From: Escherichia phage sortregn
Sequence record: MN850588.1
Strand: one strand, 5' to 3'
Length of the DNA: 38,200 nucleotides
In this document: piece after piece, positions 1,538 to 35,925 of the stretch
Numbering within the stretch: position 1 is the first letter of the stretch
Layout of the letters: every line of letters begins with the position of its first letter
Notes under the pieces: generated by a model
Databases searched by the model: none
Seen by the model: the letters and a program-made list of their open reading frames with translations, nothing else
What the model was told of the DNA's origin: nothing
Program-made: the position numbers and the translations under genes

Positions 1538-3580
1538 TTAAAAACCCTCATTCATGAATACTTTGTTAGTGATAACGTCTTTACCCTTGCCGATCTTCCG
1601 GTGGGTAACTTTCAGTGGGGCCATGAAGTACGGCGCGAAGGCGAGGACCTCCTGGGGCGTCCGTAGCTTCTTGATGTCGGCCCGTTTCTTTCCGTCCAGT
1701 ACGTGCTTAAGGATCCCATTGTGGAGCCATTCCTTTTTCGCCTGTGGGCTATCGCTACCGGGCCAGAATACTTGCCACGCCACGAACTGATCGCCGTCCT
1801 TCTCCAACTCGTACCGGAAGGCGATCCCCCCAGTCCCTCGCGCCAATTCCAGACGGAAGCCCCTCACGTTGTAGTAGTCGTCCCTGCTGTACGTGGTCCG
1901 GCTTAAGTTCTTGTTCGGATCTACGAGCGAGTTCCCGCAGCAGCGGCAGATCCTGGCTACGATGTCGTTTTGTGCGCCGCATCCCTTCTGTACCACCTTC
2001 CGCCCGCTGGAGTCCTTCCAGTCGTCGCAGGTGATGAACTGGAAAAAGTGTTCGCAGCGTTCGCCAGTGTCGGGATCGACGTAGCGGCAGCGTCGGGCGT
2101 GTTTGCCGTTTAGCGTCGGGTGGCCCGCCTTGCGACACTTCGGACAGTCTAACTCTAATTCTCCTTTGCTCTCGTCTGCGCTGTGCTGGTATGCCTCCAG
2201 CAGCGGGGAGAAATACAGGGATCCGAGTTCGTCAAGCGTCCCGGCATAGTCGAGGACCAGGTGATCCTCCTTCGTCACCCCGGCGGCGATGTGGAACGGC
2301 TTAAGGATGCGCATACCACGGCCTAAAAGCTGGGTTAGGAGCGTGAGGGATCCGATCTTCCGCAGTATCACGGACGTGTCCCAGAACGGGACGTTAACGC
2401 CAGTCGTTAGGGCGTTAACCTGGAATATAAATTTGATCTCCCCGGTATTGGCGCGGCGCAAAATGTCCATGCGCTTCTTGCCCGTCGTGTCGTCCGTGAT
2501 GATGGCGTAAGGCGTACCAGGGGGAAGGGCCTCCGCCGCCTGTTTGCAGTGTCTCACGCCCGCACACGTCACTAACACGCCGTTCCTGTGCTGGGCGATG
2601 GCGTATACCTCCGCCATGATCTCATGCGTGAGCTTTTTGTCCTTAAGGATCGCCTTTTGCATGGCGTCCATTTCGGCGTCCGTGAACTCCTTAATGCCAT
2701 CCTCGCCGGACGATCGCCACTGGTCGAGGTTGTAGTGGAGATTGGAGATCCCGAAGTGAGTCGGAACAACCGCGCCGACGCTTACCAGGTATTCCGTCGA
2801 GATCTCGCATACCTTCTTACGCCAAAATCCGGGCTGTTCGAGGTCTGGCTGGATGATGGACTCCACGCCACGGTATGGCGTCCCGGTGTAGCCAATAATG
2901 CGGAGTTCCTTCCCGTAGACCTCGCGGGCGCGTTGCTGGAATGTGCGGATAATGATCGTATAGCTGGAGCGACCCGCCTCGATCATCTCCTCGTAAGTCT
3001 CGCCCTTGTGCTCGCCGATAATGGTCGGCTCGTCGAAGCCGTCCAGGATGATCTCCCCGGTTTTCTCGTCCCGCAGGTACTCCGGGACCACGCGCTCCTG
3101 TGAGCGGATCAGGTCCTCAATGTTGACGTGATGGCATTCATCGATCAGCAGGAACAGCGGCGCGTAATGGGCGAGTGCCTGACCTGGGCGGAGTCCTCCG
3201 ATCACTGTACCCTCGGAGCCGACCACGATCGGGAAGTGTGCAGACTTGCGGCCCAGGCTGGCGCAGTAGATCGAGGAGTTCACGCCGAAGTTTTTCAACT
3301 CCTCGAAGTCCTGATCGATGATCTCCCCCTGGCGGGACAGGATCATGGCAGGGAAACCCATATCCCTGATCCGGCGGGCCAGCATGGAGATCATGATGGT
3401 TTTACCCGCACTCACGGCGGCGTCCACAATGACCGGGCCAGGATAGCGACGGATGGCCTCCGCGCAAGCCTCATACGCGACGAACTGGTGATCGTATGGT
3501 GTAACGGGCATATCTCCCAGGGCGCGGAGAATCGCGTCCCGGTCGAGCGCTTCGATCTGTTTCTCCAATGTCATTAACAT
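1538..3580 (-). CDS. SF2 DEAH-box DNA helicase with C-terminal zinc-ribbon region
   Basis: 680 aa ORF; Walker A AAVSAGKT, motif II LLIDECHH, motif III YTGTP, motif VI QLLGRGMR; cysteine clusters CPKCRK, CRCCG. Confidence 0.8.
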   Translation of the reverse strand: MLMTLEKQIEALDRDAILRALGDMPVTPYDHQFVAYEACAEAIRRYPGPVIVDAAVSAGKTIMISMLARRIRDMGFPAMILSRQGEIIDQDFEELKNFGVNSSIYCASLGRKSAHFPIVVGSEGTVIGGLRPGQALAHYAPLFLLIDECHHVNIEDLIRSQERVVPEYLRDEKTGEIILDGFDEPTIIGEHKGETYEEMIEAGRSSYTIIIRTFQQRAREVYGKELRIIGYTGTPYRGVESIIQPDLEQPGFWRKKVCEISTEYLVSVGAVVPTHFGISNLHYNLDQWRSSGEDGIKEFTDAEMDAMQKAILKDKKLTHEIMAEVYAIAQHRNGVLVTCAGVRHCKQAAEALPPGTPYAIITDDTTGKKRMDILRRANTGEIKFIFQVNALTTGVNVPFWDTSVILRKIGSLTLLTQLLGRGMRILKPFHIAAGVTKEDHLVLDYAGTLDELGSLYFSPLLEAYQHSADESKGELELDCPKCRKAGHPTLNGKHARRCRYVDPDTGERCEHFFQFITCDDWKDSSGRKVVQKGCGAQNDIVARICRCCGNSLVDPNKNLSRTTYSRDDYYNVRGFRLELARGTGGIAFRYELEKDGDQFVAWQVFWPGSDSPQAKKEWLHNGILKHVLDGKKRADIKKLRTPQEVLAFAPYFMAPLKVTHRKIGKGKDVITNKVFMNEGF
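1823..1833 (-). repeat. CTGGGGGGATC 11-mer copy (sense strand of helicase gene)
   Basis: Exact match read on minus strand; frame-checked against helicase residues T583-G-G-I586. Confidence 0.85.
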
Positions 3581-3645
3581 TGTTTATCCCTTGTAATATC
3601 ACTAAAGCATGATTTATAGTAACCGGGAAATAACCGGAGGGCAAT
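3581..3645. promoter_or_regulatory. divergent promoter region between helicase and primase operons
   Basis: 65-bp AT-rich intergenic region between divergent genes; tandem GTAACCGG / ATAACCGG repeats just upstream of the primase SD. Confidence 0.4.
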
Positions 3646-4464
3646 ATGGCGATCTACAAAAAAGAGGACGTTCTCGCGGCGATGCCCGGCAAATGGGAAC
3701 AGGCGCTCCTCGATCTTTGTGGCTGGGACCGCAAGGCGTTTAACGGCAATCATCAACCTTGCCCGATCTGTGGCGGGACGGACCGCTTTCGCTGGGGCCA
3801 TAAGCAACAGACGAAGAAGGCGGAGGGCTTCGGCTACTGTTCCGGCTCCTGTGGCGGCGCTCGTGATGGCATGTTTTGGTTCATGACCAGCCGATCGCAG
3901 CCGTTCAACGAGGCGATCAACGACCTGGGCGACTGGATAGGCGGACTCACCCCGGAGAAGCGGGAAACCATCGTCAAGGAGGCGCGGAAGTATGCCCGCC
4001 AGCAGGATAAGCCCGCGCAGGACTGGGAACTCACCCCGGAGGACGTGGACAAGATCATGAGCAAAGGCACGATGCGCGACGGATTCCTGTATGTTCCATG
4101 CGCTCGTCCACTGGGGGGATCCCTGGGGCCGTGGTGCAACGTGGCGAAGATCGGCTCCGACAGGTCCGTGGTGTTTGCCGCTGGTGGCCCGACGTGGGGC
4201 GCGGTAGGTCTGATCCACCCAGTGCCAGACGCTCCGGTGTATCTGGTGGCGGATCCGGTCCATGCGGTGAACGTGGCGGCGCGAGGGGAGGCGGAGGTCT
4301 GGCTTACGTTCCGGCCTATGAACGCGGTCCAGGCGTCGGCGATATATGACGGCGATCGGGAGATCCGGTTCGTCTACACTGACCCGGACGAGGTTTTCCT
4401 GTACGGCTACGAGAGGACGGGGAGGCCATGCGTCGGCGGGCATCTTGCCGGGGCGTTCGGGTAA
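3646..4464 (+). CDS. DNA primase (zinc-ribbon plus TOPRIM-like region)
   Basis: HQPCPICGGTDRFRW and GYCSGSCGG match the primase zinc-binding ribbon of P4-alpha-like primases; later DGD acidic motif; GGAGGG SD upstream. Confidence 0.65.
   Translation: MAIYKKEDVLAAMPGKWEQALLDLCGWDRKAFNGNHQPCPICGGTDRFRWGHKQQTKKAEGFGYCSGSCGGARDGMFWFMTSRSQPFNEAINDLGDWIGGLTPEKRETIVKEARKYARQQDKPAQDWELTPEDVDKIMSKGTMRDGFLYVPCARPLGGSLGPWCNVAKIGSDRSVVFAAGGPTWGAVGLIHPVPDAPVYLVADPVHAVNVAARGEAEVWLTFRPMNAVQASAIYDGDREIRFVYTDPDEVFLYGYERTGRPCVGGHLAGAFG
4111..4121 (+). repeat. CTGGGGGGATC 11-mer copy
   Basis: Exact match; frame-checked against primase residues L156-G-G-S159. Confidence 0.85.
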
Positions 4465-4489
4465 AAAAAAAGGCCCCGCACGAGGGGCC
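4463..4489 (-). terminator. intrinsic terminator oriented for leftward transcription
   Basis: GGCCCC-GCACGA-GGGGCC hairpin 4472-4489 preceded on plus strand by A9, so U9 follows the hairpin on the minus transcript. Confidence 0.55.
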
Positions 4490-5274: not shown

Positions 5275-5856
5275 ATGATTATTTATGCACCAGTAAGCGC
5301 CTTACGCGCTCACCAACTGACCAAAGGCCAGCAGGACGTCCGCTATTACCTGAACGCGATCCACTTCATCGGCAACCGGATCCGCACGTCTAACGGTCAT
5401 GTTTGCATGGAAAGCACCCATAAGCTCGTCAACGCGCCGGAGGAGGGGATCATCCTCTCAATCTCCACGCCACCGACTGGGCGGATCTTCTCCGCCGTGA
5501 TCGACACGGACGCCGGGATCGTGTACTGGCTGGACATTCCGGCAGATAAGCCGAAGGACCTCGAAGAAGTGGACCACAAAAAGGCCCGCGTCGCTGTGGG
5601 GACCGTGGACATTGTGGAGGCCAATTATCCGAACGTGGACGCACTCCTGAACAAGGCCCGCGAGAACTCGAAGGCCGTCCACGAGATCGGCGTGGCGACG
5701 CCTTACCTCGGAATGATCGAGAAGCTGGCGAAGAAGTTCGGGATCAAGATGCCTTTTGCGAAACTGAACTTTAACGGCGCAGCGGAGCCGATCCGCGTGA
5801 ACCTGACCACGCCGGACGGCGAGGCCACCCTGATCATTATGCCCGCGAGAGTGTAA
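5275..5856 (+). CDS. hypothetical protein
   Basis: 193 aa ORF in Dam operon, no recognised motif. Confidence 0.5.
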   Translation: MIIYAPVSALRAHQLTKGQQDVRYYLNAIHFIGNRIRTSNGHVCMESTHKLVNAPEEGIILSISTPPTGRIFSAVIDTDAGIVYWLDIPADKPKDLEEVDHKKARVAVGTVDIVEANYPNVDALLNKARENSKAVHEIGVATPYLGMIEKLAKKFGIKMPFAKLNFNGAAEPIRVNLTTPDGEATLIIMPARV

Positions 5857-6083: not shown

Positions 6084-6825
6084 GGCGATCTTTTTATTCA
6101 ACCTGACCCGGATCATGGTGGACAAGTGGCTGGACGCTGGCGTGGAATGCTGGATGTATGACGGGCAGCACGAGCCAGGGATCCACCCAGACGCCGACGA
6201 GCCGAACCTGATCCGAGTGGGCCGGATGTTCGACGCGGACAACTCAATCAGGGAAGCGGCTCGCATCGCCGAGGAAGTCGGCCCCGGCGTGATCTTCGTG
6301 GCGTCCTTCGCTGAATGCACCGATCTAACCTGTACCGGGGCGCGATGGTGGGAAGCGAAGCGCAAGAAGGATCCGCGCTTCCAGGAGAAGGCCGTGGCGC
6401 TGGCTAAGATGGTGAAGCACGTCGCGGAATTTTGCAGCGTGGAGAACGGCAGCTTTGAACCCGCTTCGACGGTCCCCTGGATGCTGGAGAATCCGAAGAT
6501 CTCCCGACTCTCCACGATGTGGCGACCTTGCGATCACTGGTTCCACCCCTACAACTTCGGCGGCTACTTGCCGGAGGATCACCAGCATAGCCTCTACCCG
6601 GAGATCTACCCGGCGCGGGACGCGTACCCGAAGCAGACGGGGATCTGGTGCGGTGGCGGCTTCAAGATGCCGGAACACAAGAACGTCCCGGCGGTTAAGG
6701 ATAATCCCGGATGGTCGAAGCTGGGCGGATCTTCGACCCGAACGAAGAACATCCGCAGCGCCACCCCCGAAGGCTTCGCCGTCGCCGTGTTTATCTACAA
6801 CGCCACCCCGATCGCTCCATTCTGA
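6073..6825 (+). CDS. hypothetical protein
   Basis: 250 aa ORF with GTG start overlapping previous stop, followed by intrinsic terminator; no confident domain call. Confidence 0.5.
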   Translation: MKHKAIFLFNLTRIMVDKWLDAGVECWMYDGQHEPGIHPDADEPNLIRVGRMFDADNSIREAARIAEEVGPGVIFVASFAECTDLTCTGARWWEAKRKKDPRFQEKAVALAKMVKHVAEFCSVENGSFEPASTVPWMLENPKISRLSTMWRPCDHWFHPYNFGGYLPEDHQHSLYPEIYPARDAYPKQTGIWCGGGFKMPEHKNVPAVKDNPGWSKLGGSSTRTKNIRSATPEGFAVAVFIYNATPIAPF

Positions 6826-7411: not shown

Positions 7412-7796
7412 AGTAACAGCGAAGATTATCGGATGGACTGACGAGCAGGACGCGGAACTGGTTCGCCTGGCTGGAACCATGCCAGCGCCGGACCTGGCGA
7501 AGAAGATAAAACGCAACTTCCGCCAGATGCAGGTCCAGGCGTCGAAGCTGGGGATCTCCCTGGCGTACCGCAGGACGTACACGCAATGGACAGCGGAGGA
7601 GGACCGGAAGCTGGTCCGCTTCTGGGAGGATAAACTGACCCCGGAGGACGTGGTGGAGATCGCAGAGACTACGGGGATCTATGAAGTGACCCGCGACGAA
7701 CTGACACACGAGCACGTCGCGACCTGGCTCGACAAATCGCGCCCGGCAGTACGCGGACGCCTGGCAAAATTCAAGAAAGAGGGGAAAATAGCATGA
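7404..7796 (+). CDS. putative DNA-binding protein with two W-x-x-E-(E/Q)-D helix motifs (GcrA/Myb-like)
   Basis: GTG start after GGGGG SD; GWTDEQDAELVRLAG and QWTAEEDRKLVRFW resemble GcrA N-terminal / Myb-SANT DNA-binding repeats. Confidence 0.45.
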   Translation: MGKVTAKIIGWTDEQDAELVRLAGTMPAPDLAKKIKRNFRQMQVQASKLGISLAYRRTYTQWTAEEDRKLVRFWEDKLTPEDVVEIAETTGIYEVTRDELTHEHVATWLDKSRPAVRGRLAKFKKEGKIA

Positions 7797-7990: not shown

Positions 7991-8788
7991 ATGGGGAATT
8001 TTTGGACCTACCACGAGAACACCCAGCGCGGCGGGATCGAACTGGGCCGAGTAATCGACCCGGCGAAAGCCTCGCGCCCGGTGATCTACCTAGAATCAGA
8101 TCCGCCAGGTCTGGACGCGGCGAAGGTTTCCGCCTTCATGCCGTACTACGTTTACACTCCGATGTCCTTCACTCAGGACTTGCCGGGAGTGGCTGGTGGC
8201 GATGCCGCCGCGACCTTCGTCCCTGGGGGGAGCACGTTCTCCGCGACGGTCGAAGTCGCCGGAGGTCAAGCGCCGTTTACTTATCAGTGGTACAAGTTTA
8301 GCGGCGGAGTCGGAACGGCGATCACGCTGGCGCAGAACGCCACGGCCCAGTCGAAGGTATTCCAGATCACCAACTACACCGCAGCGGCTCAACCCGGATC
8401 CGGTAACGGTGATTGGTATGTTGTCGTAACCGACGCGACCGGGGCCACGCTCCAGTCTCAGCGCATCCGCACGAAACAGGCGATCGCCTACTCCGTCAAC
8501 CTACCGACGACCGACACCTGGACCGTCGGGACCGCCGACGCCTTAACCGTCACCGTGAACGCGGCTACGGGCCTTGCGCCGTATACTCATGAATGGTTTA
8601 AGGATGGCGTTTCTCAGGGGCCGGGGACGTCGAGCGGGACGGGGAACGCGACCTCCACGCTATCGAAGGCAAGCCCGGCAGCGGGCGACGCTGGCGTGTA
8701 TTATTGCATTTCCACCAGCGCCAACACGAACCCGCCGAAAACCATCCAGAGCATTTCTTGCACTGTAACCGTTAACCCGGCAGCATAA
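7991..8788 (+). CDS. Ig-like domain protein (two Ig-like repeats)
   Basis: ORF 7952..8788, start moved to ATG 7991 after AGAGAGGA; repeats FTYQWYKF...DWYVVVTD and YTHEWFKDG...GVYYCIS resemble Ig I-set strands. Confidence 0.6.
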   Translation: MGNFWTYHENTQRGGIELGRVIDPAKASRPVIYLESDPPGLDAAKVSAFMPYYVYTPMSFTQDLPGVAGGDAAATFVPGGSTFSATVEVAGGQAPFTYQWYKFSGGVGTAITLAQNATAQSKVFQITNYTAAAQPGSGNGDWYVVVTDATGATLQSQRIRTKQAIAYSVNLPTTDTWTVGTADALTVTVNAATGLAPYTHEWFKDGVSQGPGTSSGTGNATSTLSKASPAAGDAGVYYCISTSANTNPPKTIQSISCTVTVNPAA

Positions 8789-9040: not shown

Positions 9041-9558
9041 TGCTGACGCTCCACGGCGTCGTAATTCACTTCGCAGACCTCCCCGGCGGTGATCGCCTTC
9101 TCCGCTATATCAGCATACCGTCGAGCAGCTTCTCCAGTCCCTCGGAGCAAGTCGGAATACATTCGGGCGGTCTTTTCCCCTGACGCCCTTCCGAGGGCAG
9201 CGGTCTGATCAGCGGCTTCGCGTCTGGCGTTCTCTTTGGCGGCTCGTTCGAGCAACCGATCAAGGGCAGCACCAGCAGCAGCAGAAGCGGCGCGAGCTTT
9301 TGCGGCCTGTTCGTTCGCATATTTTACGGACTCCTCGCGGGCAATGGCCCGGCCTTGTTCAATGATACGGGCGGCGGCTTGTGCGTTCGCTTCCTGGGTG
9401 GATTCCTTCGCGATCCGAGCATTGTCGCGAGCGGTCCAGCCCCGGTCCGTCCAGGCCGAGCCAGCCCAGAAAGATCCCCCCAGCGCCAGCAGCACGACAA
9501 CGACGAGCAGCAGCGATCGCCAGTGAGTCGAAAGGAACACGCGGAGGGCGGCGATCAT
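9037..9558 (-). CDS. Rz-like i-spanin
   Basis: N-terminal TM segment LLLVVVVLLALGG, coiled-coil rich; start overlaps endolysin stop (ATGA); embedded lipoprotein ORF. Confidence 0.6.
   Translation of the reverse strand: MIAALRVFLSTHWRSLLLVVVVLLALGGSFWAGSAWTDRGWTARDNARIAKESTQEANAQAAARIIEQGRAIAREESVKYANEQAAKARAASAAAGAALDRLLERAAKENARREAADQTAALGRASGEKTARMYSDLLRGTGEAARRYADIAEKAITAGEVCEVNYDAVERQQ
9105..9320 (-). CDS. Rz1-like o-spanin lipoprotein, embedded out of frame within Rz
   Basis: Signal peptide with lipobox LIGC, proline-rich mature part, fully nested in Rz gene. Confidence 0.55.
   Translation of the reverse strand: MRTNRPQKLAPLLLLLVLPLIGCSNEPPKRTPDAKPLIRPLPSEGRQGKRPPECIPTCSEGLEKLLDGMLI
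9473..9483 (-). repeat. CTGGGGGGATC 11-mer copy (sense strand of Rz gene)
   Basis: Exact match on minus strand; frame-checked against Rz residues L26-G-G-S29. Confidence 0.85.
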
Positions 9559-11400: not shown

Positions 11401-11441
11401 CTTCGACTCCTGGGTGGATGGCCCCCGAAGGGGCCGGGTGA

Positions 11442-12420: not shown

Positions 12421-12851
12421 CTCTCTTTCCTCATGGCTTGTTTGCATTGTAAAGCGGCGAGGGCCATCTCCGGGCCAATCTCGACGCCTGGGGGGAACCC
12501 TGTTTCCGTGGTCGCCAGCTTCGAACGATCCACCTTAAGGTCCCGTAATTGTCCGGCCCGTTCCATTTGTCCGGCGTGTCGGCAGAGATCCAGCAGCTTC
12601 TTACGATCGACGCCGGGGCAGTCCCAGAACGCCGCGAATATTTGCTCCGATGGTCGCAGGGCGCAAAAAGCATTGCGCGTTTCAACCGTCGGCAGATAAG
12701 GATCCATTCTCCCCTGTTCTATCGCCTCAATGATCGAGGGATCGGTGGAGCGGATCTTCTCCAGAATCTCCAGGCGGCGCTCCATTGCCGTCTTGCGTTT
12801 AACCGTGGCCCGAAGTGGGGCGGCAGGTTTTGAATCATCAAACAGTGACAT
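12417..12851 (-). CDS. hypothetical protein, first gene of leftward operon
   Basis: ORF 12417..12977 with start moved to ATG 12851 after GGAGGG. Confidence 0.5.
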   Translation of the reverse strand: MSLFDDSKPAAPLRATVKRKTAMERRLEILEKIRSTDPSIIEAIEQGRMDPYLPTVETRNAFCALRPSEQIFAAFWDCPGVDRKKLLDLCRHAGQMERAGQLRDLKVDRSKLATTETGFPPGVEIGPEMALAALQCKQAMRKER

Positions 12852-15328: not shown

Positions 15329-15339
15329 CTGGGGGGATC
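15329..15339 (+). repeat. CTGGGGGGATC 11-mer copy
   Basis: Exact match, third reading frame relative to codons (T-W-G-D-R in track ORF). Confidence 0.8.
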
Positions 15340-22572: not shown

Positions 22573-22583
22573 CTGGGGGGATC
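22573..22583 (+). repeat. CTGGGGGGATC 11-mer copy (intergenic, part of hairpin)
   Basis: Exact match 10 nt after stop of the 89-aa gene. Confidence 0.8.
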
Positions 22584-22690: not shown

Positions 22691-23689
22691 ATGAAATTCC
22701 GTGAAATGTTTTTGAAATATTATGCACCGTACACCGAGAACGACGGCGGCGCGGCGGCATATGAAGCTATGCAGAACGGCAACTCTCAGGAAGCCACGGA
22801 CGACACCCCGGACACTGACCCGAACGAGCAGGACCACGACAACGACAACGACGTGGACACCGATCTGGACGAGCAGGATCTGGACGAGAACGGCAAGCCG
22901 AAGGCGAAGGAAGGCGGCGAGAACGCGGAAACCGAGGACGAGGAGGAGGAGTTCCTGTTCGACGGTCAACCAGTTACCGCAGCGCCTACGGACGAAGATG
23001 ATCAGGAAGGCGACAGCGACCTGGTGAAACATCTCCGCGCCCAACTCCGCGAGCAGAAAAAACAATTCAAGACCTCCACCCAGGCGGCGCAGGAGCGCAA
23101 AGAGATTCCCGCAGATATGCCCCGCAAGCCAGAGATGGGCGACGAGGGGATCGACTGGGACCCGGAGAAGTACGCCGAAGCGCTGGACAAGTGGACCGAG
23201 GACAAGGCCGCTTATCAGCAGCGCGAGCAGGAGATGGCAGCGAAGCGCGAAGCGTTCGGGAAGAAATTCTCCGAAGGCCAGCAGCGCTACCAGACCGAAC
23301 GCGCTAAGGCGATCAAGAAGTATGCGGGCTTTGAGAAGGCCGAAGCCGCGATCGCAGAACTGCCGGAGCCGTTACAGGCGGGCCTGATGATCAACAGTAA
23401 GAACCCGGCGGCGCTGGTCATGGTACTGGGACGTAACGCTGATTTGCGGAAGCAAGTCGAGGATGCCTATAATAGCGACCATATCGCGCTGGGCTACCTA
23501 ATCCGCGATATTGAGGCCCGCGCAGGTTCCAAGCCGAAGGCGAAACAGAATCTCAATTCTACGCCAGAAGTTAAGGGCCAGAACGGAGTCGCAAACGTCG
23601 GACAACTGGAAGCACTTCGCAAACGAGCGGAAGCGACCGGGGATTATACGGAATACTTCGCAGCCAAGAACAAACGGGCTGAAAAGTAA
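22691..23689 (+). CDS. scaffolding protein (P22 gp8-like)
   Basis: ORF 22649..23689 with start moved to ATG 22691 after ACGAGGA; highly acidic N-terminus, C-terminal helices resemble P22 gp8 coat-binding region; precedes coat gene. Confidence 0.7.
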   Translation: MKFREMFLKYYAPYTENDGGAAAYEAMQNGNSQEATDDTPDTDPNEQDHDNDNDVDTDLDEQDLDENGKPKAKEGGENAETEDEEEEFLFDGQPVTAAPTDEDDQEGDSDLVKHLRAQLREQKKQFKTSTQAAQERKEIPADMPRKPEMGDEGIDWDPEKYAEALDKWTEDKAAYQQREQEMAAKREAFGKKFSEGQQRYQTERAKAIKKYAGFEKAEAAIAELPEPLQAGLMINSKNPAALVMVLGRNADLRKQVEDAYNSDHIALGYLIRDIEARAGSKPKAKQNLNSTPEVKGQNGVANVGQLEALRKRAEATGDYTEYFAAKNKRAEK

Positions 23690-23719: not shown

Positions 23720-24976
23720 ATGGCTAACCAGTTAGCGAAGGATCTCGAAATTGCATTCGAGAATTATGTGGCAGGCTTTGACGCGTCTTGCGTAGTATCG
23801 CAGAACGCAGCCAAATTCCGCCCGGATGATACCGCGATGCAACGCGCCGGGGACGTGATCTATCGTCCGCAGCACTACCACGCGGATATTTTGGAAGGTC
23901 TGGATCTGACTGGCAAGGCCGGGACCGATATCGTCCAGCGCCTGGTCCCGTCGGCGTTCAAAGAACCTCAGAACGTGCTCTATAAGCTGGACGCTCGCGA
24001 AATGCGCGACCCAGAGCACAAGAAAGAAATGGGCCGAGCAGCGGGCCAACGTATCGCAGCGAAGATCGACTCCGATCTGATCAACGCCGCAGCACGTTAC
24101 GCGACGCACGTCGTCCCGGTAGGCACTAACACGACCGGAACCCTGGGCCGCGACCTGTGGAACGCAGCGGCGGGCGTGGATGCCGAAATGACCGCTATCG
24201 GGATCCCGGTAGGCGTGAACCGTCGTTCCTTCTGGAACCCCTTCTCCTACAAAGACCTTGCGGGCGAACTGGGCGGACGCCAGTACGTCGCGGGCGTGAC
24301 CCTCTCCGCATACGAGAAGGCGCAGATCCCGGATGTGGCGAGCTTCGACTCCTACAAGACGGACATCTCTCCGCGTCTGGGCGCTGGCCCGACTGGAGCG
24401 ATCACCCTGACCGCAGCCCCGGCGCACAAAGTCCAGTCTAAGAACGCGAACGACATCCCGGTGGATAACCGCGAAGGCGTGATCGATGTTTCTGCTGGTC
24501 ACGGTCTGAAGGCTGGCGACGCGTTCACTATCGCGGGCGTTCACTCCGTCCACATGATCAGCAAGGACACGACTGATCAGCTTCAAGTGTTCCGTGTGCT
24601 GGCAGTGTCCGACAACAACGTAACGATCACCCCGCAGATCCTCCCGCCGGATAACGCGGATCTGCCGTCTCGTCCTTACTCCAACGTGGACGCGAACGCA
24701 GCCTCCGGCGCTGAACTGACCGTTATCAACAAGAACGCGGCGAACGCTAACTTGCTGTGGGCGGACGGCTCCGTGGAGCTTATGCTGGGTAATCTGGCGT
24801 TCCCGACTGGTCAAGGCCCGCAGGTTATGCGCGCTACCGCGAAGAACGGCGCGACGCTGATCATGTCCTACAGCTTCGACCACATCGCGGGCGTCACCAC
24901 TTGCCGCTTTACCACGCTTTACGGCGTTTCCGTCCTCGTGCCGGAATATGTCGGCCTGGTACTGCCGAACCAGTAA
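23720..24976 (+). CDS. major capsid (coat) protein, P22 gp5-like
   Basis: 418 aa; several collinear matches to P22 coat protein (MQRAGDVIYRP, LLWADGSVELM, C-terminal YGVSVLVPEYVGLVLP); strong terminator after stop. Confidence 0.85.
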   Translation: MANQLAKDLEIAFENYVAGFDASCVVSQNAAKFRPDDTAMQRAGDVIYRPQHYHADILEGLDLTGKAGTDIVQRLVPSAFKEPQNVLYKLDAREMRDPEHKKEMGRAAGQRIAAKIDSDLINAAARYATHVVPVGTNTTGTLGRDLWNAAAGVDAEMTAIGIPVGVNRRSFWNPFSYKDLAGELGGRQYVAGVTLSAYEKAQIPDVASFDSYKTDISPRLGAGPTGAITLTAAPAHKVQSKNANDIPVDNREGVIDVSAGHGLKAGDAFTIAGVHSVHMISKDTTDQLQVFRVLAVSDNNVTITPQILPPDNADLPSRPYSNVDANAASGAELTVINKNAANANLLWADGSVELMLGNLAFPTGQGPQVMRATAKNGATLIMSYSFDHIAGVTTCRFTTLYGVSVLVPEYVGLVLPNQ

Positions 24977-25070: not shown

Positions 25071-25589
25071 ATGTCACGCAATAAGACCGCGATCGCCGTA
25101 GCTATGACCATGATTTACACCCGCCCCGCTATCATCGCCGGGGAAAATATCAAAGGTCTGGAAGTCCTGACCCGCGACCACACGGACGGCCCCTACGCCC
25201 GCGCCTCGTTCCCGGATGAAGAAGCCGCCGAGCGTCTGGAGTCTGGCTTCTGGGTGGATCATCCGGTCAAACTCTCCACGCTGGACAAGGCGATCGCCGA
25301 AGCCGCTCAGAAGGAAGCGGAGCAGGACAAAAAGGACGCCGACAACCAGAAAGCCGAGCAGGTGAAGAAGGAGCAGGACGAGAAGGTGGAAGATAAGGCC
25401 CCAGAATCGACCGCTACGGCCTCCGAGCAGAAAGACGACCCGAAGGCCACCGAAGCGGAAAAAGCCGCAGAGAGCGGCGCAGAGGCTCAGGAATCCACCC
25501 AGGAAGCGAAGGCCGACGAATCCAAGCCGAAAGACGGCGAGAAGGTAGACGGCGCGAAAGTTCCGACTGATAAGAAGGCGAAGAAATAA
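25071..25589 (+). CDS. hypothetical protein with Lys/Glu/Ala/Asp-rich disordered tail
   Basis: Internal ATG 25071 of ORF 24948..25589 after AAGAGGA; roughly 75 aa ordered N-terminus then charged low-complexity tail. Confidence 0.5.
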   Translation: MSRNKTAIAVAMTMIYTRPAIIAGENIKGLEVLTRDHTDGPYARASFPDEEAAERLESGFWVDHPVKLSTLDKAIAEAAQKEAEQDKKDADNQKAEQVKKEQDEKVEDKAPESTATASEQKDDPKATEAEKAAESGAEAQESTQEAKADESKPKDGEKVDGAKVPTDKKAKK

Positions 25590-27484: not shown

Positions 27485-27495
27485 CTGGGGGGATC
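27485..27495 (+). repeat. CTGGGGGGATC 11-mer copy (immediately 5-prime of gp26-like ATG)
   Basis: Exact match ending one base before ATG 27496. Confidence 0.85.
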
Positions 27496-28094: not shown

Positions 28095-28496
28095 GTGGAT
28101 TATGGCGAGATGATCGAACTTGTCCCGGACTCCGGCGTGGACCTCCTCCACGCCTGGGGCCTCCCGGAGTGGCCCCGCCACGTCGAGGCAAAGTATTTTC
28201 TGTGGGAAAGATGTTGCGTGTTCGCGATCATGGCGAACGACGAAGGCGGGATCGATGGACATATGGCAATGGATCCACCCATGCGCAGACGGTCCCGCGA
28301 GGCTTGCCAGGCGTTCCTCGCACACTGGGGCCACTATGCGATCCGCGTCCCGGTATTGATGGACCACCGTCACGCCCGGAACGTCGTCCGCAAAGTCGGA
28401 TTTGTTGAAAGTCCGCCCCAGCTTGTACAATTGGCGGACGGCAGAGAGGCGGAAATTATTTTCATGAGGAGAGGACCAAATGGGCGGAGCAATTAG
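28095..28496 (+). CDS. hypothetical protein (gp14 position)
   Basis: 133 aa ORF, GTG start at 28095 or ATG at 28110. Confidence 0.4.
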   Translation: MDYGEMIELVPDSGVDLLHAWGLPEWPRHVEAKYFLWERCCVFAIMANDEGGIDGHMAMDPPMRRRSREACQAFLAHWGHYAIRVPVLMDHRHARNVVRKVGFVESPPQLVQLADGREAEIIFMRRGPNGRSN

Positions 28497-29142: not shown

Positions 29143-30464
29143 TGGCTCAATTATTAGGCGGCGGCGGTTCGGATCCGGGCGATCTGTGGAATAACCTCCA
29201 GAACATCCAGGCCGCAGGGACTAACACGCTCCAGAACATCGGGCAGATTCAGGCTAACACGGCGCAGCAGATCCAGAACCGACAGCAGGGGATGGCGATG
29301 CAAGCCGCAGCAGCCCAGCGCGACCAGATGGCGGCGTTTAATCAGGACTGGCAAGCAGCCCAGGGCGACCCGTCCAAGATTTCGGAACTGGCCTACAAAT
29401 ACCCGACCCAGATCGAAGCGCTCCAGAAGCGTCTCGGACTGGTGGATGATATTCGCCGCCAGCAGGGATCCCAGCTTGCAAGCCAGGCCGACGTCGCGAT
29501 CTCGCAGGGGCCGCAGATGGCCCAGCAATTCGTCCAGCAGAACGCCCCGGCGCTCCAGGCGCTGGGAATTGATCCGCAGGTGGCCTACCAGACGGCGGCG
29601 CAGGACCCGGAGGCGTTTAAACGCTCCGTTCAAGCGCTCCACCTGGCGAGCAATACCAGCAAGGATCAACTGGACTACTCGAAAGAGATCATGAAGAACC
29701 AGACCACGATCAGGGGCCAGGACCTCGACGCGGCGGCGAAGGCGGCAGACCGTAACCTCCGTTACATCGGGCTACAGAATGACCGCCTGAACACGCAGAT
29801 CGCGCAGGAAGGGAACGACATCAAACGCGCCCAGATGCAGCAGACGCTACAGAAGGCGCAACAGGACAGCCTGAACACGAAACGCGATTTTCTCCAGACC
29901 TACGACAAGACGGTGGCCCCGATCGACACGTCGCTGGAACTGGCGAAACAGCTATTAAACCGTAAGGATCTGGGCTTCGTGACCGGGATTAACGGCTACG
30001 GAAACCGCTTCTGGTCGGCGGCTACTGGCGGCGGCGATAACACGGCGGAGATCATGCAGACCCTGGATCAGCTTAAGAGCCAGGCGCGACTCGCCGGGAT
30101 GGAGTCCTTGCGCGGGACTGGCTCCGTCACCGAGAAGGAAGGCGAGGCGGCGGCTAATGCCCTGCTGAACGCTAACCCCGGACAAATGAGCGAGGATCAG
30201 CTTAAGGCGGTGATCCAGCGTTATGTCTCCAGCCTGGAGAAGGGCAAGGCAGCGCTGGAGAAGAACCAGGGCGGGCGAGTCCAGGCCTACCGCCAGGAGA
30301 TCGCACGAGACGACGCCAAACAGGAAGCAGTCGGGCAATTGACCGCTGGGGGGATCCCCGCGCAGAACGCGCAAGCGGCTATTAATTACCTGATGCAGAA
30401 CCCTACCCCTAGCGTTAAGGCGCAATTTAAGGAAAAATACGGTTTCTTACCGGAGGGGCTTTAA
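29142..30464 (+). CDS. ejection protein (P22 gp20-like)
   Basis: 440 aa Q-rich, overlapping stop/start with gp7-like gene. Confidence 0.55.
   Translation: MAQLLGGGGSDPGDLWNNLQNIQAAGTNTLQNIGQIQANTAQQIQNRQQGMAMQAAAAQRDQMAAFNQDWQAAQGDPSKISELAYKYPTQIEALQKRLGLVDDIRRQQGSQLASQADVAISQGPQMAQQFVQQNAPALQALGIDPQVAYQTAAQDPEAFKRSVQALHLASNTSKDQLDYSKEIMKNQTTIRGQDLDAAAKAADRNLRYIGLQNDRLNTQIAQEGNDIKRAQMQQTLQKAQQDSLNTKRDFLQTYDKTVAPIDTSLELAKQLLNRKDLGFVTGINGYGNRFWSAATGGGDNTAEIMQTLDQLKSQARLAGMESLRGTGSVTEKEGEAAANALLNANPGQMSEDQLKAVIQRYVSSLEKGKAALEKNQGGRVQAYRQEIARDDAKQEAVGQLTAGGIPAQNAQAAINYLMQNPTPSVKAQFKEKYGFLPEGL
30346..30356 (+). repeat. CTGGGGGGATC 11-mer copy
   Basis: Exact match; frame-checked against gp20-like residues A402-G-G-I405. 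Confidence 0.85.
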
Positions 30465-33400
30465 ATGGCGAACATCTTCGACCAATTTGATCAGAACATG
30501 CCGAAAAATGCGACGGCGCTCCCTAATCAGATTCCAAACCAACCCGGATCCACTGGATCCGGTTATGCTGATCTGGTGGAGAGTGCCGGGGCGAAGTGGG
30601 GGATCCCTGCTGGCCTCATGACCCAATTAGTGGGGAAAGAGTCCAGCGGCAACCCGTCCGCCGTCTCCTCGAAAGGCGCAACCGGGCTAACTCAGGTTAT
30701 GCGCGGGACCGCCGAGGATATGGGCTACAACTGGGACGCGCTGAAAAACGATCCAGCATTACAGGCAGACGCGGGGGCGCAGTACCTTTCCCGCATGTAT
30801 CAGAGGTATGGAGACTGGGGGACCGCTCTCCAGGCTTACCATGACGGCCCCGGCAACGTAGACAAACAACTGGCGGGACAGGCAGAACCTGGCCCGGAGG
30901 GGCGTCAATATGTGGATGATCGGTTTAATCAATGGACTGGGCGAGGCGCTGGCGACAATGGCAGCGGCGAACCTACTCAATACGCAACCAGCGCACGATC
31001 TCCGAGTGCTGGCGGTAATGTTTTCGACCAATTCGGGGACTACCAACCCCCAGCAGCAGCCGCAGCCGACGGAGCCGGACCAACCGGAGCCGATCAACAA
31101 GTCGCAGCCGTCGCCGCTGGCAATGCACCTAATCAAGCGGGATCTGATGGCGCACAAGGGGCGGCAGCGCCGAACGGTAACGGAGTCCAGAGCGGAGCTA
31201 ATCAGCCCGGACAAACCGATCCAAACGAAGAAGCCGCCCGAAACTGGGAACAGTTAGGCCAGACCGTTCTCCATTCGCTGGATCAGGGCGCTCGCGGCGT
31301 GGCTCAGACGGGGATCGACCTGCTGAACACGCCGATCTCGCTGGCGAACATGATCTCCAATGCCGTGACCGATGCGGGCAAATGGGCCGGAGTCGTGGAC
31401 CAGGACACCCAAGCGCCGACCATCACGCCTGGGGGGATCCCTGGTCTCGCGCCTACCGACAAATACGCGCAGATCGGGACCGTGATCGGGGATATGCTCG
31501 CGCCACTGCCTGGCCCTCGTAAGGCTCAGGCGGCGACCGAACTCCTCGGACTGGTCCGTGAATCGCCGGACGTGGCTACCTTCTCGACTCGCCTCGCTGA
31601 TGCCGTGCAGAACTGGATCGCGGCTCCGGCGGCTCGTGCCGTTCCCGGCGCGGTGGCCGCTGGACGTGGGGACCCGGAGGAGACGCTGACGAACATCGCG
31701 TTAGCTCCCGCTGGCGAGGCTGTGGGCCGCGCTGTTATCGGTGGCGCTGGTAGGCTGTGGAACGCTCTCCGGGGCGAAGCTGGGGCCGCTGGTGGCGCTG
31801 GTGCAGATGCAGCGGCAGACGCCGCAAGATCCACCCAGGCGTCCGAGGCGGGCATTTCCGACGCGGTGGCTCGTGACGCGAGCAAGTTCCGACTGACGCC
31901 GGATCGCACTGTGCAGGGCGCGAACGGTGAAACCCTCCGCGCTTCTGACGATGCGATCGATCTGGCGAACATGGCGGACGTGGACAAGAAGGTCCTCAAG
32001 ACGGCCCGCGATCTGGGACTGGAGGACCAACTGACCCCGGCGGCTTATGCGCGTGACACCAATTTCCGCAGCACGATCCAGCAGCTTGTAAGCCGTAAAG
32101 GTTCCAACCTGGAGACGCAGCAGCTAAACGGGATCGCCCGCTTAGGCGAGAAAGCCGACGAGCTGATCGACAGCATGAGCAGCATGAACGCGCAGACCAT
32201 TGATCAGGCGTTTACCGCCCGCACTCGTGCAGTGATCGACGGACTGGGCGACGAGGCGGAGAAGGCTTATAACGCGATCGCGGCGAAGATCCCGCGTAAC
32301 GCCGAAGTAAGGCCGGACAGTACCGTGGACTATCTGACGGCGAAAGCCGACGAGTTAGGCGGCGACGCGTACCTGTCAACGGCAGAGCGTAAGGCGCTGG
32401 ACTGGATGGCTCCGAAGCCTGGCAAGGTGGACCCTGTGACGGGCCTCCCGGATCAGGACGTGGCGACGATCCCGACTTACTCCCGACTGGACACGCTTCG
32501 TAAGCAGGTAGGCCAGGCGCTCAATAAAAAATCCGGCCCGTTCAAGGACGAGGAGACGGGAGCGCTTAAACAGCTTTACGCCCGCCTGACGGACGACCAG
32601 GAGAAAGTCGCGGCCCAGTACGGCGCGGCGGACGACTGGAACGTGGCTAAACAGCTTGTTAAACGCCGTAAGGACCTGGAGACGATCGCCCAGGACGCGC
32701 TCGGAAAGAACCTTACCGACTCGATCACCGGGAAAGTGCAGAACGCGATCCTGAATCTGGGTAAAAAGGGCGGCAGCGCGAAGGACTGGGACCGTCTGAT
32801 GGCTGCAACCCCGGAGAGCCTGAAACAGGACGTAGTGGCTAACGCGCTGGAGCGTACCCTGGGCGCACGTAGCGCCCGCGATACCTTCGCGATCCCCGGC
32901 TTCGTGGACTGGTACAAGACCGCCCAGGCAAACGGGACGTTAGGCAACGTCATGAAGCATTTACCCCGCGATCAGCGTGTGCGCCTGATGCAGGTTTACC
33001 GCGTGGCGAACGCCATCGACCGGGCGAAACGCTTTACCACGACGACGGGATCGATCTCCGACTTCGTGAAGCGCTTCGACGATCCTAGCGCTGGCGGCGT
33101 CTTGTCCAAGCTGTACGGCGCGGCGGGCTGGCTGGGTAAACATGCGGCGGCGTTCTATGCAGCAGGTCCGGCGGGTAATGCGGCCCTCTCAGCGGCTCAG
33201 GCAGCGCGGGGCGCTCGCGTCCCTCGTTCGGTGCTGGCGGACAATTTGCTTTCGTCCACGAACTTCTCCAAACTTATGCAAGCCGCAGCCGCGCAGAGTT
33301 CCGGGAAGCTAACCCCAGCGGGCCGGACGTTCGTCCGCGAGGCCGAGGAAGCGGCGGCAAACTCCCCAGAGTGGCGGGCCTTGTATGAGGCATTCACCCC

Positions 33401-33531: not shown

Positions 33532-35925
33532 ATGTCCGACTTAGACACGCTTTCGGCGGTTTCTATGCCGTCCGTCCCATTCCTCCGCATCGATCGCTTT
33601 GCGGCGGTGGCGGACGGTGGGCTTTACGTGGGCCAACCCGACACGGACCCGACGCAGCCGGAGAACCAGGTCCCGGTCTACATCCTGAACGAGGACGGAA
33701 CCCTGACCCAGATCGAGCAGCCTGTGAAGATCGGGATCGCGGGCTATCCGGTTTATAACGGGCAAGTCGTCAAGGTCCTGACGCAGCCGGGGACCTCTCT
33801 CGACGTCCGCGACCGGAACAACGTCCAGATGTTCTACTTCGACAACCTGACGAAGTACGACCCGGAACAGATGTGGAAACTACTCCAGAGTTCGACGGGC
33901 TGGGAGTTCGTGGGGACCACTTACGGCAACGTGAAACAGGCCATTCAGGGCTATATCACGCCGTGGAACTTCGTCGGCAAGCCGGAATATGCGACCGAGA
34001 CGGAAGCGATTCAGGCCATGTTTGACTATGCGAAGGCGAATAACCTCCCGATCCGCGCTTTCAACTGGGAAGGCACGACCGCCGGGATCGTCACCGCAGA
34101 GAACATCACGATCGTCGGCGGGATCTGGAACCTGGTCGGCAATAACGCAAAGTTCACTAATTGCGTGGTTTTTGATGGGATCTGGCGTCGCCGCTCTATC
34201 TGGTCAAAAGGGACTTACTTCGAGCGTTGCCGCTTCGAACAATGCCGCATCCTTCACGCGTCGGACGACGTGCTGATCCTTAACTCCAAGTTCTCCGGCA
34301 AGGTAGGCAGGAACGTGGCCTCCATCGTCATGCAGGGGAACCAGGTCGAAGGCGACAACAACAAGGACTATTTCGGGCGTTTACGCGTCGAGAACTGCGA
34401 GTTTAATGATATTTCTGGGGGGATCTTCCAGCAGGGCGGGCACTTCAAAATCACCCGCATGATCTTGCGTAACCTGACGTTTACGAACCTGGACTCCGAC
34501 GCGATCGAGCTTAACGTGGTGAATGATGGCTCCTTTACCGAAGGATGCACGATCGAGAACATCGAGATCTATAACTCTAACGCCACGCTTGCGAACTCCA
34601 ACTTAGGGATCGGGATCGGTGTGGCTGGTGCTGGCCCGTACTCGTGGGACGCGCCGGAAACCAACTACGCGAAAAACTTCGTGATCCGCAACGTGACCGC
34701 CGTCGGCGTTCGCCAGTGTGTCCACGTCGAGGTCGGATCCGACTTCGTGATCGAGAACGTGAACGTAAACCCGGACGCCAACAAGTCGATCGGGACTGGC
34801 CTGATCGTCTCCGGCGTTTATATCGCTGGTTCGAAGAACTTCACGATCAACGGCGTAAGCGGAACCCCTGTTCCGTCCGCGACTGTGCCGATCACGGACA
34901 TTCGTATGATCTGCCTGGTGCCGGGACCTACTGACCAATCCGCCCAGCAGTACAATACGCTTTGCCGTGACTACACGATCCGAAACGTGGACGCAAAGGG
35001 CGCATGGGTGCAACTGTGGGTAGACGCTTACCCCGGCTATGGTTCGATCCAGCCACACAGCAACCACGCGACGATCGAAAACGTGGACTGTTATCGCTTC
35101 TCGTGCTTCGGCGTGGGGACCGTGACGACGCTCCGAAACATCACTTGCACCACGTCCGACTGTTTAGGCGATACCTCCACCGGGGGCGGCTATAAAAACC
35201 AGGCGGGATCCGGTACGCTGTTATATATCTTCACTAAATCGGTGCTGAATATTGACGGCTTCTACTCGGAGACTCCGGGCGAGATCTACCGCAAGCCGCG
35301 CTACATGTACACCAATGTGAAGAACTGCAACATTCAGGTAGATCAGGGCGCTAACTTCGACGGACGCGTGGGCGCTCAACTGACGCCGATCACGAAGGCT
35401 TACGCGCCGCAGATCACGGCCCACGGTGGATATGGGAACTTCTTCCCGCGTGGTCGGGAGTTCGACGTGGGCGATCAGGTCTTTGTCTACGACTACGGCA
35501 GCAACGACCCGGCTAATGGTCCTGGGGGGATTGTGGCGCTCAAGGCTTACGTGGTGACGGGCTTCGGCGCGTACTACCCGGCGAACACTGGCGCGTCCAC
35601 CCTCCGCGCAGCAGCAGCGGGCGCTAAACGCGTTTACTGTGCGCTGACGCCGACCGGGACCAGTACCGGATCGCCGTGGCTGTACACTGACACGCTGACC
35701 GCCGGGACGCGTATCAAGATCACGACCAGCGTCGGACAGGAAACCGTGACGATCACCCGCGCACCGTTCCAGCCGCTGAACGATAACGACAACACGGACA
35801 ACCCGGCGAACACGTCGTTACCTATCGCGATCGAGTTCACCCCGGCGCTACAGGGTAGCGTGGCGGCGAACGCTCGCTTTACGATGGCTTACCCCATCAC
35901 CACGCGACCGCCGATCTCCGCATAA
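33532..35925 (+). CDS. tailspike protein, P22-type head-binding N-domain plus beta-helix receptor-binding domain
   Basis: ORF 33520..35925, second ATG 33532 preferred (GGAG SD); YVGQPDTDPTQPENQVPVYILNEDG resembles P22 gp9 head-binding domain; Asn/Gly/Val-rich body. Confidence 0.8.
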   Translation: MSDLDTLSAVSMPSVPFLRIDRFAAVADGGLYVGQPDTDPTQPENQVPVYILNEDGTLTQIEQPVKIGIAGYPVYNGQVVKVLTQPGTSLDVRDRNNVQMFYFDNLTKYDPEQMWKLLQSSTGWEFVGTTYGNVKQAIQGYITPWNFVGKPEYATETEAIQAMFDYAKANNLPIRAFNWEGTTAGIVTAENITIVGGIWNLVGNNAKFTNCVVFDGIWRRRSIWSKGTYFERCRFEQCRILHASDDVLILNSKFSGKVGRNVASIVMQGNQVEGDNNKDYFGRLRVENCEFNDISGGIFQQGGHFKITRMILRNLTFTNLDSDAIELNVVNDGSFTEGCTIENIEIYNSNATLANSNLGIGIGVAGAGPYSWDAPETNYAKNFVIRNVTAVGVRQCVHVEVGSDFVIENVNVNPDANKSIGTGLIVSGVYIAGSKNFTINGVSGTPVPSATVPITDIRMICLVPGPTDQSAQQYNTLCRDYTIRNVDAKGAWVQLWVDAYPGYGSIQPHSNHATIENVDCYRFSCFGVGTVTTLRNITCTTSDCLGDTSTGGGYKNQAGSGTLLYIFTKSVLNIDGFYSETPGEIYRKPRYMYTNVKNCNIQVDQGANFDGRVGAQLTPITKAYAPQITAHGGYGNFFPRGREFDVGDQVFVYDYGSNDPANGPGGIVALKAYVVTGFGAYYPANTGASTLRAAAAGAKRVYCALTPTGTSTGSPWLYTDTLTAGTRIKITTSVGQETVTITRAPFQPLNDNDNTDNPANTSLPIAIEFTPALQGSVAANARFTMAYPITTRPPISA
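34415..34425 (+). repeat. CTGGGGGGATC 11-mer copy
   Basis: Exact match; frame-checked against tailspike residues S299-G-G-I302. Confidence 0.85.

Follow-up and report, generated by a model that had tools for sequence, protein, structure and literature searches.

The 38,200-nucleotide window analysed here, taken from Escherichia phage sortregn (MN850588.1), belongs to a P22-like podovirus of the genus Murrayvirus which is 98.5–99.3% identical, in reverse orientation, to Salmonella phage Lumpael, and it is punctuated by an asymmetric DNA word whose commonest spelling is the 11-mer CTGGGGGGATC. At both ends of the window lie recombination genes on the minus strand; the early region is mixed, and the late genes form a long operon on the plus strand. 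The left end of the window carries, on the minus strand, the genes of a RecE/ExoVIII-like PD-(D/E)XK exonuclease, cut by the window start (1..1029), of a VRR-NUC nuclease (1069..1551) and, adjoining the latter, of a RadD-like superfamily 2 helicase with a Cys-rich C-terminal region (1538..3580), the 680-aa product of which, a 'DEAD/DEAH helicase', is homologous to RadD, an accessory protein of recombination in E. coli (PDB 6jde, E 8e-48). A plus-strand gene (3646..4464) encodes a primase with a zinc ribbon and a TOPRIM-like core, assigned to the T7/DnaG type by fold match, as its structure model best matches T7 primase, Twinkle and DnaG. The presumed replicative helicase is a RepA/DnaB-like AAA_25 protein (12992..14656, plus strand).

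The preliminary description of this DNA had reported nine exact copies of CTGGGGGGATC, all of which we found, two on the minus strand (1823..1833 and 9473..9483) and seven on the plus strand (4111..4121, 15329..15339, 22573..22583, 27485..27495, 30346..30356, 31429..31439 and 34415..34425). The chance expectation of about 0.02 given there also holds, as dinucleotide-preserving shuffles yielded a mean of 0.02 copies and a maximum of 1. Codon shuffles, which preserve protein sequences and codon usage, gave 2.2 ± 0.5 copies (maximum 5), with the residual copies coming mostly from unshuffled intergenic DNA. The exact copies occupy three codon phases (L-G-G-S at 4111 and 9473, x-G-G-I at 1823, 30346, 31429 and 34415, W-G-D at 15329), and two of them are intergenic, at 22573 (10 nt past a stop codon) and 27485.

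We determined that the exact 11-mer is the N=G subset, and the commonest spelling, of a degenerate DNA word, 5'-CTGGGNGGA(T)(C)-3'. In a single-position substitution scan the sixth base alone was free, while every other core position tolerated no change. The 9-mer core CTGGGNGGA is present in 35 copies versus about 2 expected (10.1 ± 2.1 after codon shuffling), the 10-mer CTGGGNGGAT in 24 versus 0.25–0.44 (sixth base A in 3, C in 4, G in 10 and T in 7) and the 11-mer with a free sixth base, CTGGGNGGATC, in 18 versus about 0.1; the shorter form CTGGGGGGA occurs 15 times in the whole window (0.46 expected), and CTGGGTGGAT appears seven times among the most repeated 10-mers. Four variants listed earlier (8223, 12488, 20342 and 35522) do exist, but that list was incomplete, minus-strand copies of CTGGGGGGA at 18323 and 37109 having been missed. 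Of the non-redundant sites, two thirds have T at position 10 and half have C at position 11. The Dam-site tail, likewise pointed out before, is present in only 18 of the 35 copies and is a soft feature, since half of the copies lack GATC and GATC itself is 3.6-fold enriched genome-wide. Runs of six G or six C number 20, with 15 of them within the word, versus 33 ± 6 in codon-shuffled genomes, so that such runs are rare outside the word. There is no longer element common to the copies, whose flanks differ apart from a weak A-poor 5' context, and Rfam and tRNA scans of the window gave no match.

Convergent pairs and even spacing

The 35 core copies are distributed over the strands at about 2:1 (23 plus, 12 minus), and minus copies are never adjacent to one another in order along the window. 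Each of the 12 lies 79–703 bp downstream of a plus copy, the next plus copy following after 541–2587 bp. Thus, there are 12 convergent pairs of less than 1 kb versus 4.4 expected from label shuffling (p<5e-5), and two divergent close pairs; the same convergent excess was found in sortsyn, Sortsne, IME279 and Kc237. Along the window, with the plus-strand copy on the left and the minus-strand copy on the right, the pairs are formed by CTGGGTGGAAC at 1368..1378 and the exact copy at 1823 (455 bp); the exact copy at 4111, in the primase gene, and CTGGGTGGATC at 4212..4222 (101 bp); CTGGGCGGATC at 5477..5487 and CTGGGTGGATC at 6180..6190 (703 bp); CTGGGTGGATT at 9394..9404, in the spanin gene, and the exact copy at 9473 (79 bp); CTGGGGGGAAC at 12488..12498 and CTGGGCGGATC at 13051..13061 (563 bp), which span a divergent promoter region; CTGGGAGGATC at 18240..18250, in the large terminase gene, and CTGGGGGGAAC at 18321..18331 (81 bp); CTGGGGGGAAC at 20342..20352, in the portal gene, and CTGGGAGGACT at 20830..20840 (488 bp); the exact copy at 22573 and CTGGGTGGAGG at 23073..23083 (500 bp); CTGGGTGGATC at 25250..25260 and CTGGGTGGATT at 25492..25502 (242 bp); the exact copy at 31429 and CTGGGTGGATC at 31828..31838 (399 bp); the exact copy at 34415 and CTGGGCGGATT at 34937..34947 (522 bp); and the intergenic CTGGGAGGATC at 36904..36914 and CTGGGGGGAGT at 37107..37117, in the SSB gene (203 bp).

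Unpaired plus-strand copies comprise CTGGGCGGAGT at 808..818 and 3184..3194, CTGGGCGGATC at 6721..6731, CTGGGAGGATA at 7622..7632, CTGGGGGGAGC at 8223..8233, the exact copy at 15329 (15 nt past a GTG start codon), CTGGGCGGACG at 24269..24279, the exact copy at 30346 and CTGGGGGGATT at 35522..35532. Two further plus-strand copies are the intergenic CTGGGTGGATG at 11410..11420 and the exact copy at 27485, in which the tail-needle gene (ATG at 27496) has its ribosome-binding site. In addition, a decayed minus-strand copy, ATGGGTGGATC, is found at 28272..28282, where Lumpael, ST231 and sortsyn have an intact minus-strand partner.

On each strand the copies are evenly spaced (p<=0.002 for both), with a mean gap of 1.6 kb on the plus strand (560–2986 bp, coefficient of variation 0.46) and of 3.2 kb on the minus strand (coefficient of variation 0.42). 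This even same-strand spacing, similar in five further genomes, is on the scale of Okazaki fragments. In the pair interiors we found no hairpin and no AT-rich unwinding element; their GC and GATC content is ordinary and their folding unremarkable, and sequence around the sites has a folding energy just slightly below random, as G-richness would lead one to expect. No association with sigma-70-like promoters or terminators was seen in a scan of window positions 1–20000. An RNA stem between pair members was rejected, as by inspection the free bases are non-complementary in 11 of 12 pairs, and so were mosaic or recombination breakpoints at the sites, as six ends of high-scoring segment pairs fall within 15 bp of a site versus 8.2 expected.

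Orientation relative to genes

According to the preliminary description, every copy lies in the sense orientation of its transcription unit. This is true of the N=G spelling only (sense to antisense 11:2); over all spellings we counted 17 sense, 14 antisense and 4 intergenic copies (binomial p=0.72), 31 of 35 being intragenic. Nor are the variants sense copies throughout, those at 12488 and 18321 being antisense to their own genes. The N=T or C spellings show the opposite ratio of 4:11 (Fisher p=0.003), and the choice between G and T or C follows gene orientation because of coding constraint: sense GGGGGG encodes Gly-Gly, which is allowed, while an antisense G spelling would force CCCCCC, i.e., Pro-Pro, which is avoided. 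The reported co-orientation with transcription is thus a codon artefact of one spelling. That the signal acts at the level of nucleic acid and is not a protein motif was, in turn, borne out: the word is found in every codon phase, in either orientation and between genes as well.

Without a sense bias across all spellings, RNA-level interpretations fall. That sense transcripts use the word as an internal Shine-Dalgarno-like pause element or as a processing or binding site, as was suggested at the outset, is largely refuted and now scarcely tenable. This reading can draw on the nine exact copies, all of them sense or co-oriented, on the copy at 27485, a real ribosome-binding site directly 5' of an ATG, and on the ability of GGGGGGAUC, judged by inspection, to pair with the 3' end of 16S rRNA; but the sixth base is free, 14 of the 31 genic copies are antisense, the antisense copies at 12488 and 18321 are kept across genera, and the sense bias of the N=G spelling is accounted for by codons. 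The word is accommodated wherever the local sequence allows: at 27485 it serves as a ribosome-binding site, and the complement of the antisense intergenic copies at 11410 and 36904 overlaps the AGGAG of minus-strand genes (at 11410 the ribosome-binding site of such a gene).

Conservation and distribution

Nine close relatives (75–99% identical) carry 31–37 core copies each. Within the ten close genomes, the copies at 4111, 12488, 20342, 30346 and 37107 and the pair 9394/9473 are kept in 10 of 10. At orthologous sites, word positions 1–10 are conserved at 89–97%; the mean for the flanks is about 82%, falling to 54–75% at wobble positions. Ten consecutive word bases are kept across wobble positions at 75–90% genome identity. 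In the primase gene the word has slid by one base within the same four codons, its place in Sortsne (gcg tCT GGG GGG ATG, A-S-G-G-M) being one base 3' of that in IME279 (gcg CTG GGG GGA TCg, A-L-G-G-S). Sites also turn over, e.g., the 1823 copy is missing in Sortsnevirus, where an opposite-strand copy stands about 90 bp away, and totals stay constant. With such turnover, the motif and its architecture are kept in 13 genomes of at least four genera. These include C130_2 (Hungariovirus), Skarpretter and the Stutzerimonas phage record STP9, which have almost zero nucleotide similarity to the window and yet contain 16–18 copies with the same strand alternation.

In a small, 50-kb sample of E. coli K-12 the word has 0 copies on either strand, by which a motif common throughout the host genome was rejected; Chi (7/3) and the FtsK-orienting polar sequence KOPS (4/0) occur in the same sample as expected. 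A scan of IMG/VR contigs for the convergent pair matched only this podovirus family and about five unrelated chance hits. The word is confined to phages with this replication module. Searches of the literature with the motif string matched only unrelated primers and sequences, and full-text literature searches found no description of the word.

A compositional by-product of enriched CTGG (1.65-fold) and GATC together with codon usage has next to no chance of being the explanation. Both sub-words are indeed raised genome-wide, but together they yield an enrichment of about 6-fold, not of over 100-fold, the codon-shuffled core count remains far below the observed 35, and composition is unable to produce conserved positions, even spacing or pairing. 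An origin by chance or composition was rejected on the evidence of dinucleotide shuffles, codon shuffles and conservation.

A sister word in T1-like phages

Homologues of the RadD-like helicase with 42–49% identity are encoded by T1-like siphoviruses. Their virions are unrelated to that of the window's phage, and what they have in common with it is a module of primase, RadD-like helicase, VRR-NUC nuclease, Dam-family methyltransferase, RecE-like exonuclease and Erf. The primases are 29% identical over their full length, while the presumed replicative helicases differ (AAA_25 in the window, DUF3987 in T1). The Cys-rich C-terminal region of the RadD-like helicase is conserved; the VRR-NUC gene follows that of the helicase, and this pair of genes is kept in T1-like phages.

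The core CTGGGNGGA is missing from the T1-like loci carrying these helicase homologues. A blind search for enriched gapped words in the same loci returned CTGANTGGT as the top word, with 10–15 copies per 22 kb in most of them; some lineages (L111, L121) have CTGANCGGT in its place. The complete T1 genome contains 30 copies of CTGANTGGT versus 1.4 expected (16 plus, 14 minus), with 5–6 convergent versus 2 divergent close pairs (p 0.001–0.005), and sixteen T1-like loci sum to 38 convergent versus 8 divergent close pairs, counts that are non-independent as the loci are related. Similar to the window's word, CTGANTGGT starts with CTG, has one free inner base and an A-poor 5' flank, occurs on both strands with a tendency to convergent pairs and accompanies the replication-recombination module; it differs in the other inner bases, in the lack of a strand bias and in its lower density. 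CTGGGNGGAT and CTGANTGGT align gaplessly as CTG-xxx-GG-x-T, both beginning with the invariant CTG. We found that, relative to CTGG controls and in non-redundant site sets, A is depleted at -9 to -5 and -2 to -1 in the window's family (p down to 3e-7); in non-redundant sites of the T1-like word the depletion extends from -5 to -1 (p down to 5e-6), with T favoured at -5/-4 and C at -1. Positional equivalence of the spanin-gene sites of T1 and the window was rejected, as the spanin proteins are not homologous.

The sister word is not mentioned in the literature searched. A 2024 paper on phage TLS (PMC11447400) is without it and describes only another, 21-nt intergenic repeat. As for that repeat, its T1/TLS-type form ATAGCACnnnTTGnTAAAA occurs in the window at 4543–4563 and 6855–6875 (plus) and 11763–11783 (minus), upstream of genes and oriented the way these are transcribed, and AGCACTTTTTG is repeated 5–6 times in C130_2, STP9 and Skarpretter; the podovirus family therefore has a T1-like regulatory repeat too. 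A distant relative (L056/L045, IMG/VR contig 3300029257_000010), whose primase is 39% identical, has few copies of CTGGGNGGA. CTGGCG[AT]A[GA], by contrast, is enriched there to about 21 copies per 21 kb, which lie on both strands without clear alternation and may represent either a third private word or no more than an effect of codons.

A candidate priming signal

We class the word as a putative genome-wide, strand-specific protein-recognition word with an undescribed architecture. Its strand specificity, independence of transcription, even spacing, lineage-specific forms, invariant CTG and one-sided flank point to a reader that is encoded by the shared module and reads one DNA strand. Among the candidates we favour, at a probability of roughly one in three and on sequence-based grounds, the phage's own T7/DnaG-type zinc-ribbon primase, for which the word would be the preferred priming signal; the RadD-like helicase, common to T1-like phages, is an alternative candidate reader. 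CTG is the initiation triplet of E. coli DnaG. The invariant 5'-CTG-3' of the word might likewise serve as initiation triplet, with a primer starting pppAG opposite T and C, while the 3' part, GGNGGAT, would be gripped by the zinc-ribbon domain. From the A-poor 5–9 bases upstream, a primer would presumably be copied that is poor in U, stable and of about the usual length. Evenly spaced same-strand copies would let DNA chains start anywhere, and by geometry the chains started from a plus copy and from the minus copy to its right should grow away from each other.

The window encodes a cognate primase whose zinc-binding domain, by fold match, would read the template, and the word lies on both strands at chain-initiation spacing. 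In T7 and Twinkle, this class of zinc-binding domain confers template sequence specificity (PMC2910064, PMC5737085, PMC10557236). Long specific priming signals that form an inverted pair on complementary strands and are needed by the element's own primase are represented by ssiA/ssiB of the IncQ plasmid RSF1010 (PMC8567376). The ssi sites resemble the window's word in being long single-strand signals specific for an own primase (RepB') and in their inverted arrangement, and they are used with a RepA-type (AAA_25) helicase, a protein of which type is also encoded in the window (PMC8567376). They are unlike it in comprising 40 nt with a hairpin and in occurring once each in one origin, whereas the window's word has 9–10 nt, no hairpin and about 35 dispersed copies, many of them unpaired; in addition, RepB' is an archaeo-eukaryotic-type primase and the phage enzyme a TOPRIM/T7-type one. 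The primases T7 gp4, DnaG and Twinkle share with the phage enzyme the fold class, a zinc-binding domain that reads the template and G/T-rich sites. These sites are GGGTC, TGGTC and GTGTC for T7, CTG for DnaG and (G/C)GGA for Twinkle. With their 3–5 nt, they differ from the window's word in being too frequent to need maintenance, and to our knowledge neither even spacing nor pairing has ever been described for them.

Several points weigh against the primase as the reader. As far as we know, the TOPRIM primases studied to date recognise 3–5 bases, not 9–10. Position 10 is not T in 11 of the 35 copies, and no conserved inverted repeat such as an ssiA/ssiB- or G4-type hairpin was seen at the sites. 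Minus-strand copies are 6–8 kb apart in C130_2 and Skarpretter, too sparse to be the sole lagging-strand starts. Convergent pairing is not required by ordinary fork priming and may be rationalised only by analogy with ssiA/ssiB, whose relative orientation in RSF1010 is presumably opposite. There is no covariation that would single out the primase, since all shared proteins co-diverge, and its candidacy is deduced from sequence throughout.

Alternative readings

A Chi-like recombination hotspot had been proposed at first sight. The E. coli Chi site itself does not fit, as its sequence is different, but we keep as the main rival, and regard as a tentative possibility, a modified version in which a recombination helicase or nuclease would read the word in one orientation as a control site, whereupon DNA degradation would stop or switch. 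Candidate readers would be the RecE-like exonuclease of the phage, its RadD-like helicase together with VRR-NUC, or a RecBCD of the host that a phage factor redirects. Phage DNA would thereby be labelled 'self', resection would be kept in check, and Erf-dependent recombination and replication would be fed. Like Chi, the word is G-rich, asymmetric, orientation-dependent and over-represented in the genome to be protected, with a partial match CTGG..GG; by inspection, the words of the window and of T1 both resemble E. coli Chi, GCTGGTGG, lengthened by one base (CTGG-GN-GG and CTG-AN-TGG). The word is also dense and even on both strands and not in the host sample, the module common to T1 consists mostly of recombination proteins, and T1 and TLS destroy host DNA yet spare their own (PMC11447400). 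True Chi is 3- to 7-fold enriched in this podovirus family as well, and a Chi-like role would still agree with the sparser copies of C130_2 and T1 (one per 1.6–2.6 kb overall, 3–8 kb for a single strand). On the other hand, the sequence is not that of E. coli Chi, the word is phage-lineage-specific and neither over-represented nor strand-skewed in the host sample, and we know of no sequence-reading nuclease in the module, RadD being without known sequence specificity. Chi is not arranged in convergent pairs, which would be less economical given a polarity of the E. coli type, and it is not obvious what the A-poor 5' flank and the invariant CTG would do here. Duplex-DNA sites for a phage regulator or architectural protein, stoperator-like or looping across the convergent pair, are unlikely. 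About 35 asymmetric sites per genome recall the mycobacteriophage L5 stoperators (about 30 asymmetric sites across the phage genome; mentioned in PMC11447400), the variable pair spacing of 79–970 bp would suit looping, and an XRE-family helix-turn-helix protein and a 'D5-like' regulator are encoded; but L5 stoperators are intergenic and oriented with transcription, whereas 31 of the 35 sites here are intragenic and independent of its direction, promoter-like sites are not associated with them, and even per-strand spacing and a strand-specific A-poor flank would be unexpected for a regulator.

Quite improbable, in turn, are programmed nick sites at which a phage endonuclease cuts one strand. 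Localized nick sites are known from T5, phiKMV-like and tf-like phages, and both a strand-specific consensus dispersed genome-wide and an encoded endonuclease VII/HNH-like protein would agree with such a role; yet the known nick consensuses differ and are mostly one-stranded, and even spacing and pairing are foreign to those systems. The target of a modification or defence-evasion system, also considered earlier, is improbable, since such a word should be avoided and this one is enriched, with even spacing. Type III and Type ISP targets are likewise head-to-head asymmetric sites, as are the 12 of 12 convergently paired minus copies, but they are 5–7 bp long and phages avoid their inverted pairs, while this word is 9–10 bp long and enriched. 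The window's ResIII-domain protein is the RadD homologue (E 8e-48) and its methyltransferase is of the Dam family, so that neither represents a Mod/Res enzyme. KOPS (GGGNAGGG), read by FtsK, differs in sequence and is skewed towards dif, whereas the window's word alternates between strands. The uptake sequences of Haemophilus and Neisseria (USS/DUS), which Karlin and colleagues are said to have described in 1996, are reportedly 9–10-mers that occur about once per kb on both strands, with even spacing and frequent inverted pairing, much like the window's word; they are unlike it in belonging to bacterial chromosomes with a competence receptor and in having adjacent inverted pairs that act as terminators. 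Among the nearest known systems (ssiA/ssiB, the T7/DnaG/Twinkle sites, Chi, stoperators and uptake sequences), some features of each recur here and a defining one of most is absent.

T1 and TLS degrade host DNA by an unidentified nuclease, their own DNA being spared (PMC11447400). A broader proposal, which we consider rather doubtful, is that phages with the T1-type module each carry a private 9–10-base 'self word' (CTGGGNGGAT in this family, CTGANTGGT in T1-like phages), set evenly on both strands in convergent pairs, read by a module protein and setting chain starts or nuclease stops, which could explain how T1-like phages replicate and achieve this sparing. If the word is a priming signal, the enzyme would be the first TOPRIM/T7-type primase with a specificity of 9–10 bases, and no phage genome organised about fixed sites of chain start would have been known before. 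As a nuclease-control word, it would instead be an analogue of Chi encoded by a phage and give a handle on how T1-like phages degrade the host genome without self-degradation (PMC11447400). Either way, a testable conserved genome-wide code exists in an under-studied podovirus family, with a sister form in the classical T1, and in phage engineering synonymous recoding could destroy sites.

Other features of the window

True Chi, GCTGGTGG, is found in the window at 4180, 8192, 28050 and 31788 (plus) and at 8712, 11811 and 16152 (minus), i.e., seven times versus about 2.2 expected, three of the seven sites lying within about 70 bp of a motif copy. In Sortsnevirus it is present in 16–17 copies with a plus-strand bias, and T1 has none.

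GATC occurs 494 times in the window, a 3.6-fold enrichment relative to composition, and codon-shuffled genomes have 285 ± 10; CTAG occurs only 4 times versus 139 expected. Raised along with GATC are CGATCG, with 63 copies, and GCGATCGC, with 15 versus 1.1 expected. The GATC/CTAG pattern is the same in all relatives, all of which have a Dam-family methyltransferase, and in T1-like loci GATC is 1.1- to 1.7-fold enriched only. The paper of Olsen et al. on these phages, which was not searched for the motif itself, does not mention GATC. A 250-aa protein (6073–6825, plus) is a Dcm/C5 methyltransferase by its relatives' annotation, with no Pfam match at E<=0.001, and CCWGG is little enriched (161 versus 152 after codon shuffling). 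We found that restriction-type palindromes are extremely avoided in the window: 28 of the 64 six-base palindromes are wholly missing, e.g., CCCGGG, CCGCGG, GCCGGC and CGGCCG (each 26 expected), and non-GATC palindromes number 221 versus 626 expected. Sortsne and C130_2 are similar in this respect, and the E. coli sample is without only two types.

A small open reading frame in the early/lysis region of this lytic phage (10790–11026, minus) contains a clear ParE-like toxin domain (E 1e-18). The 53-nt stretch after the portal gene (21470–21522) contains a terminator-like hairpin, agcccgcttcggcgggct, followed by a T-rich tail, and is 94% identical in C130_2 and STP9 despite undetectable nucleotide similarity elsewhere.

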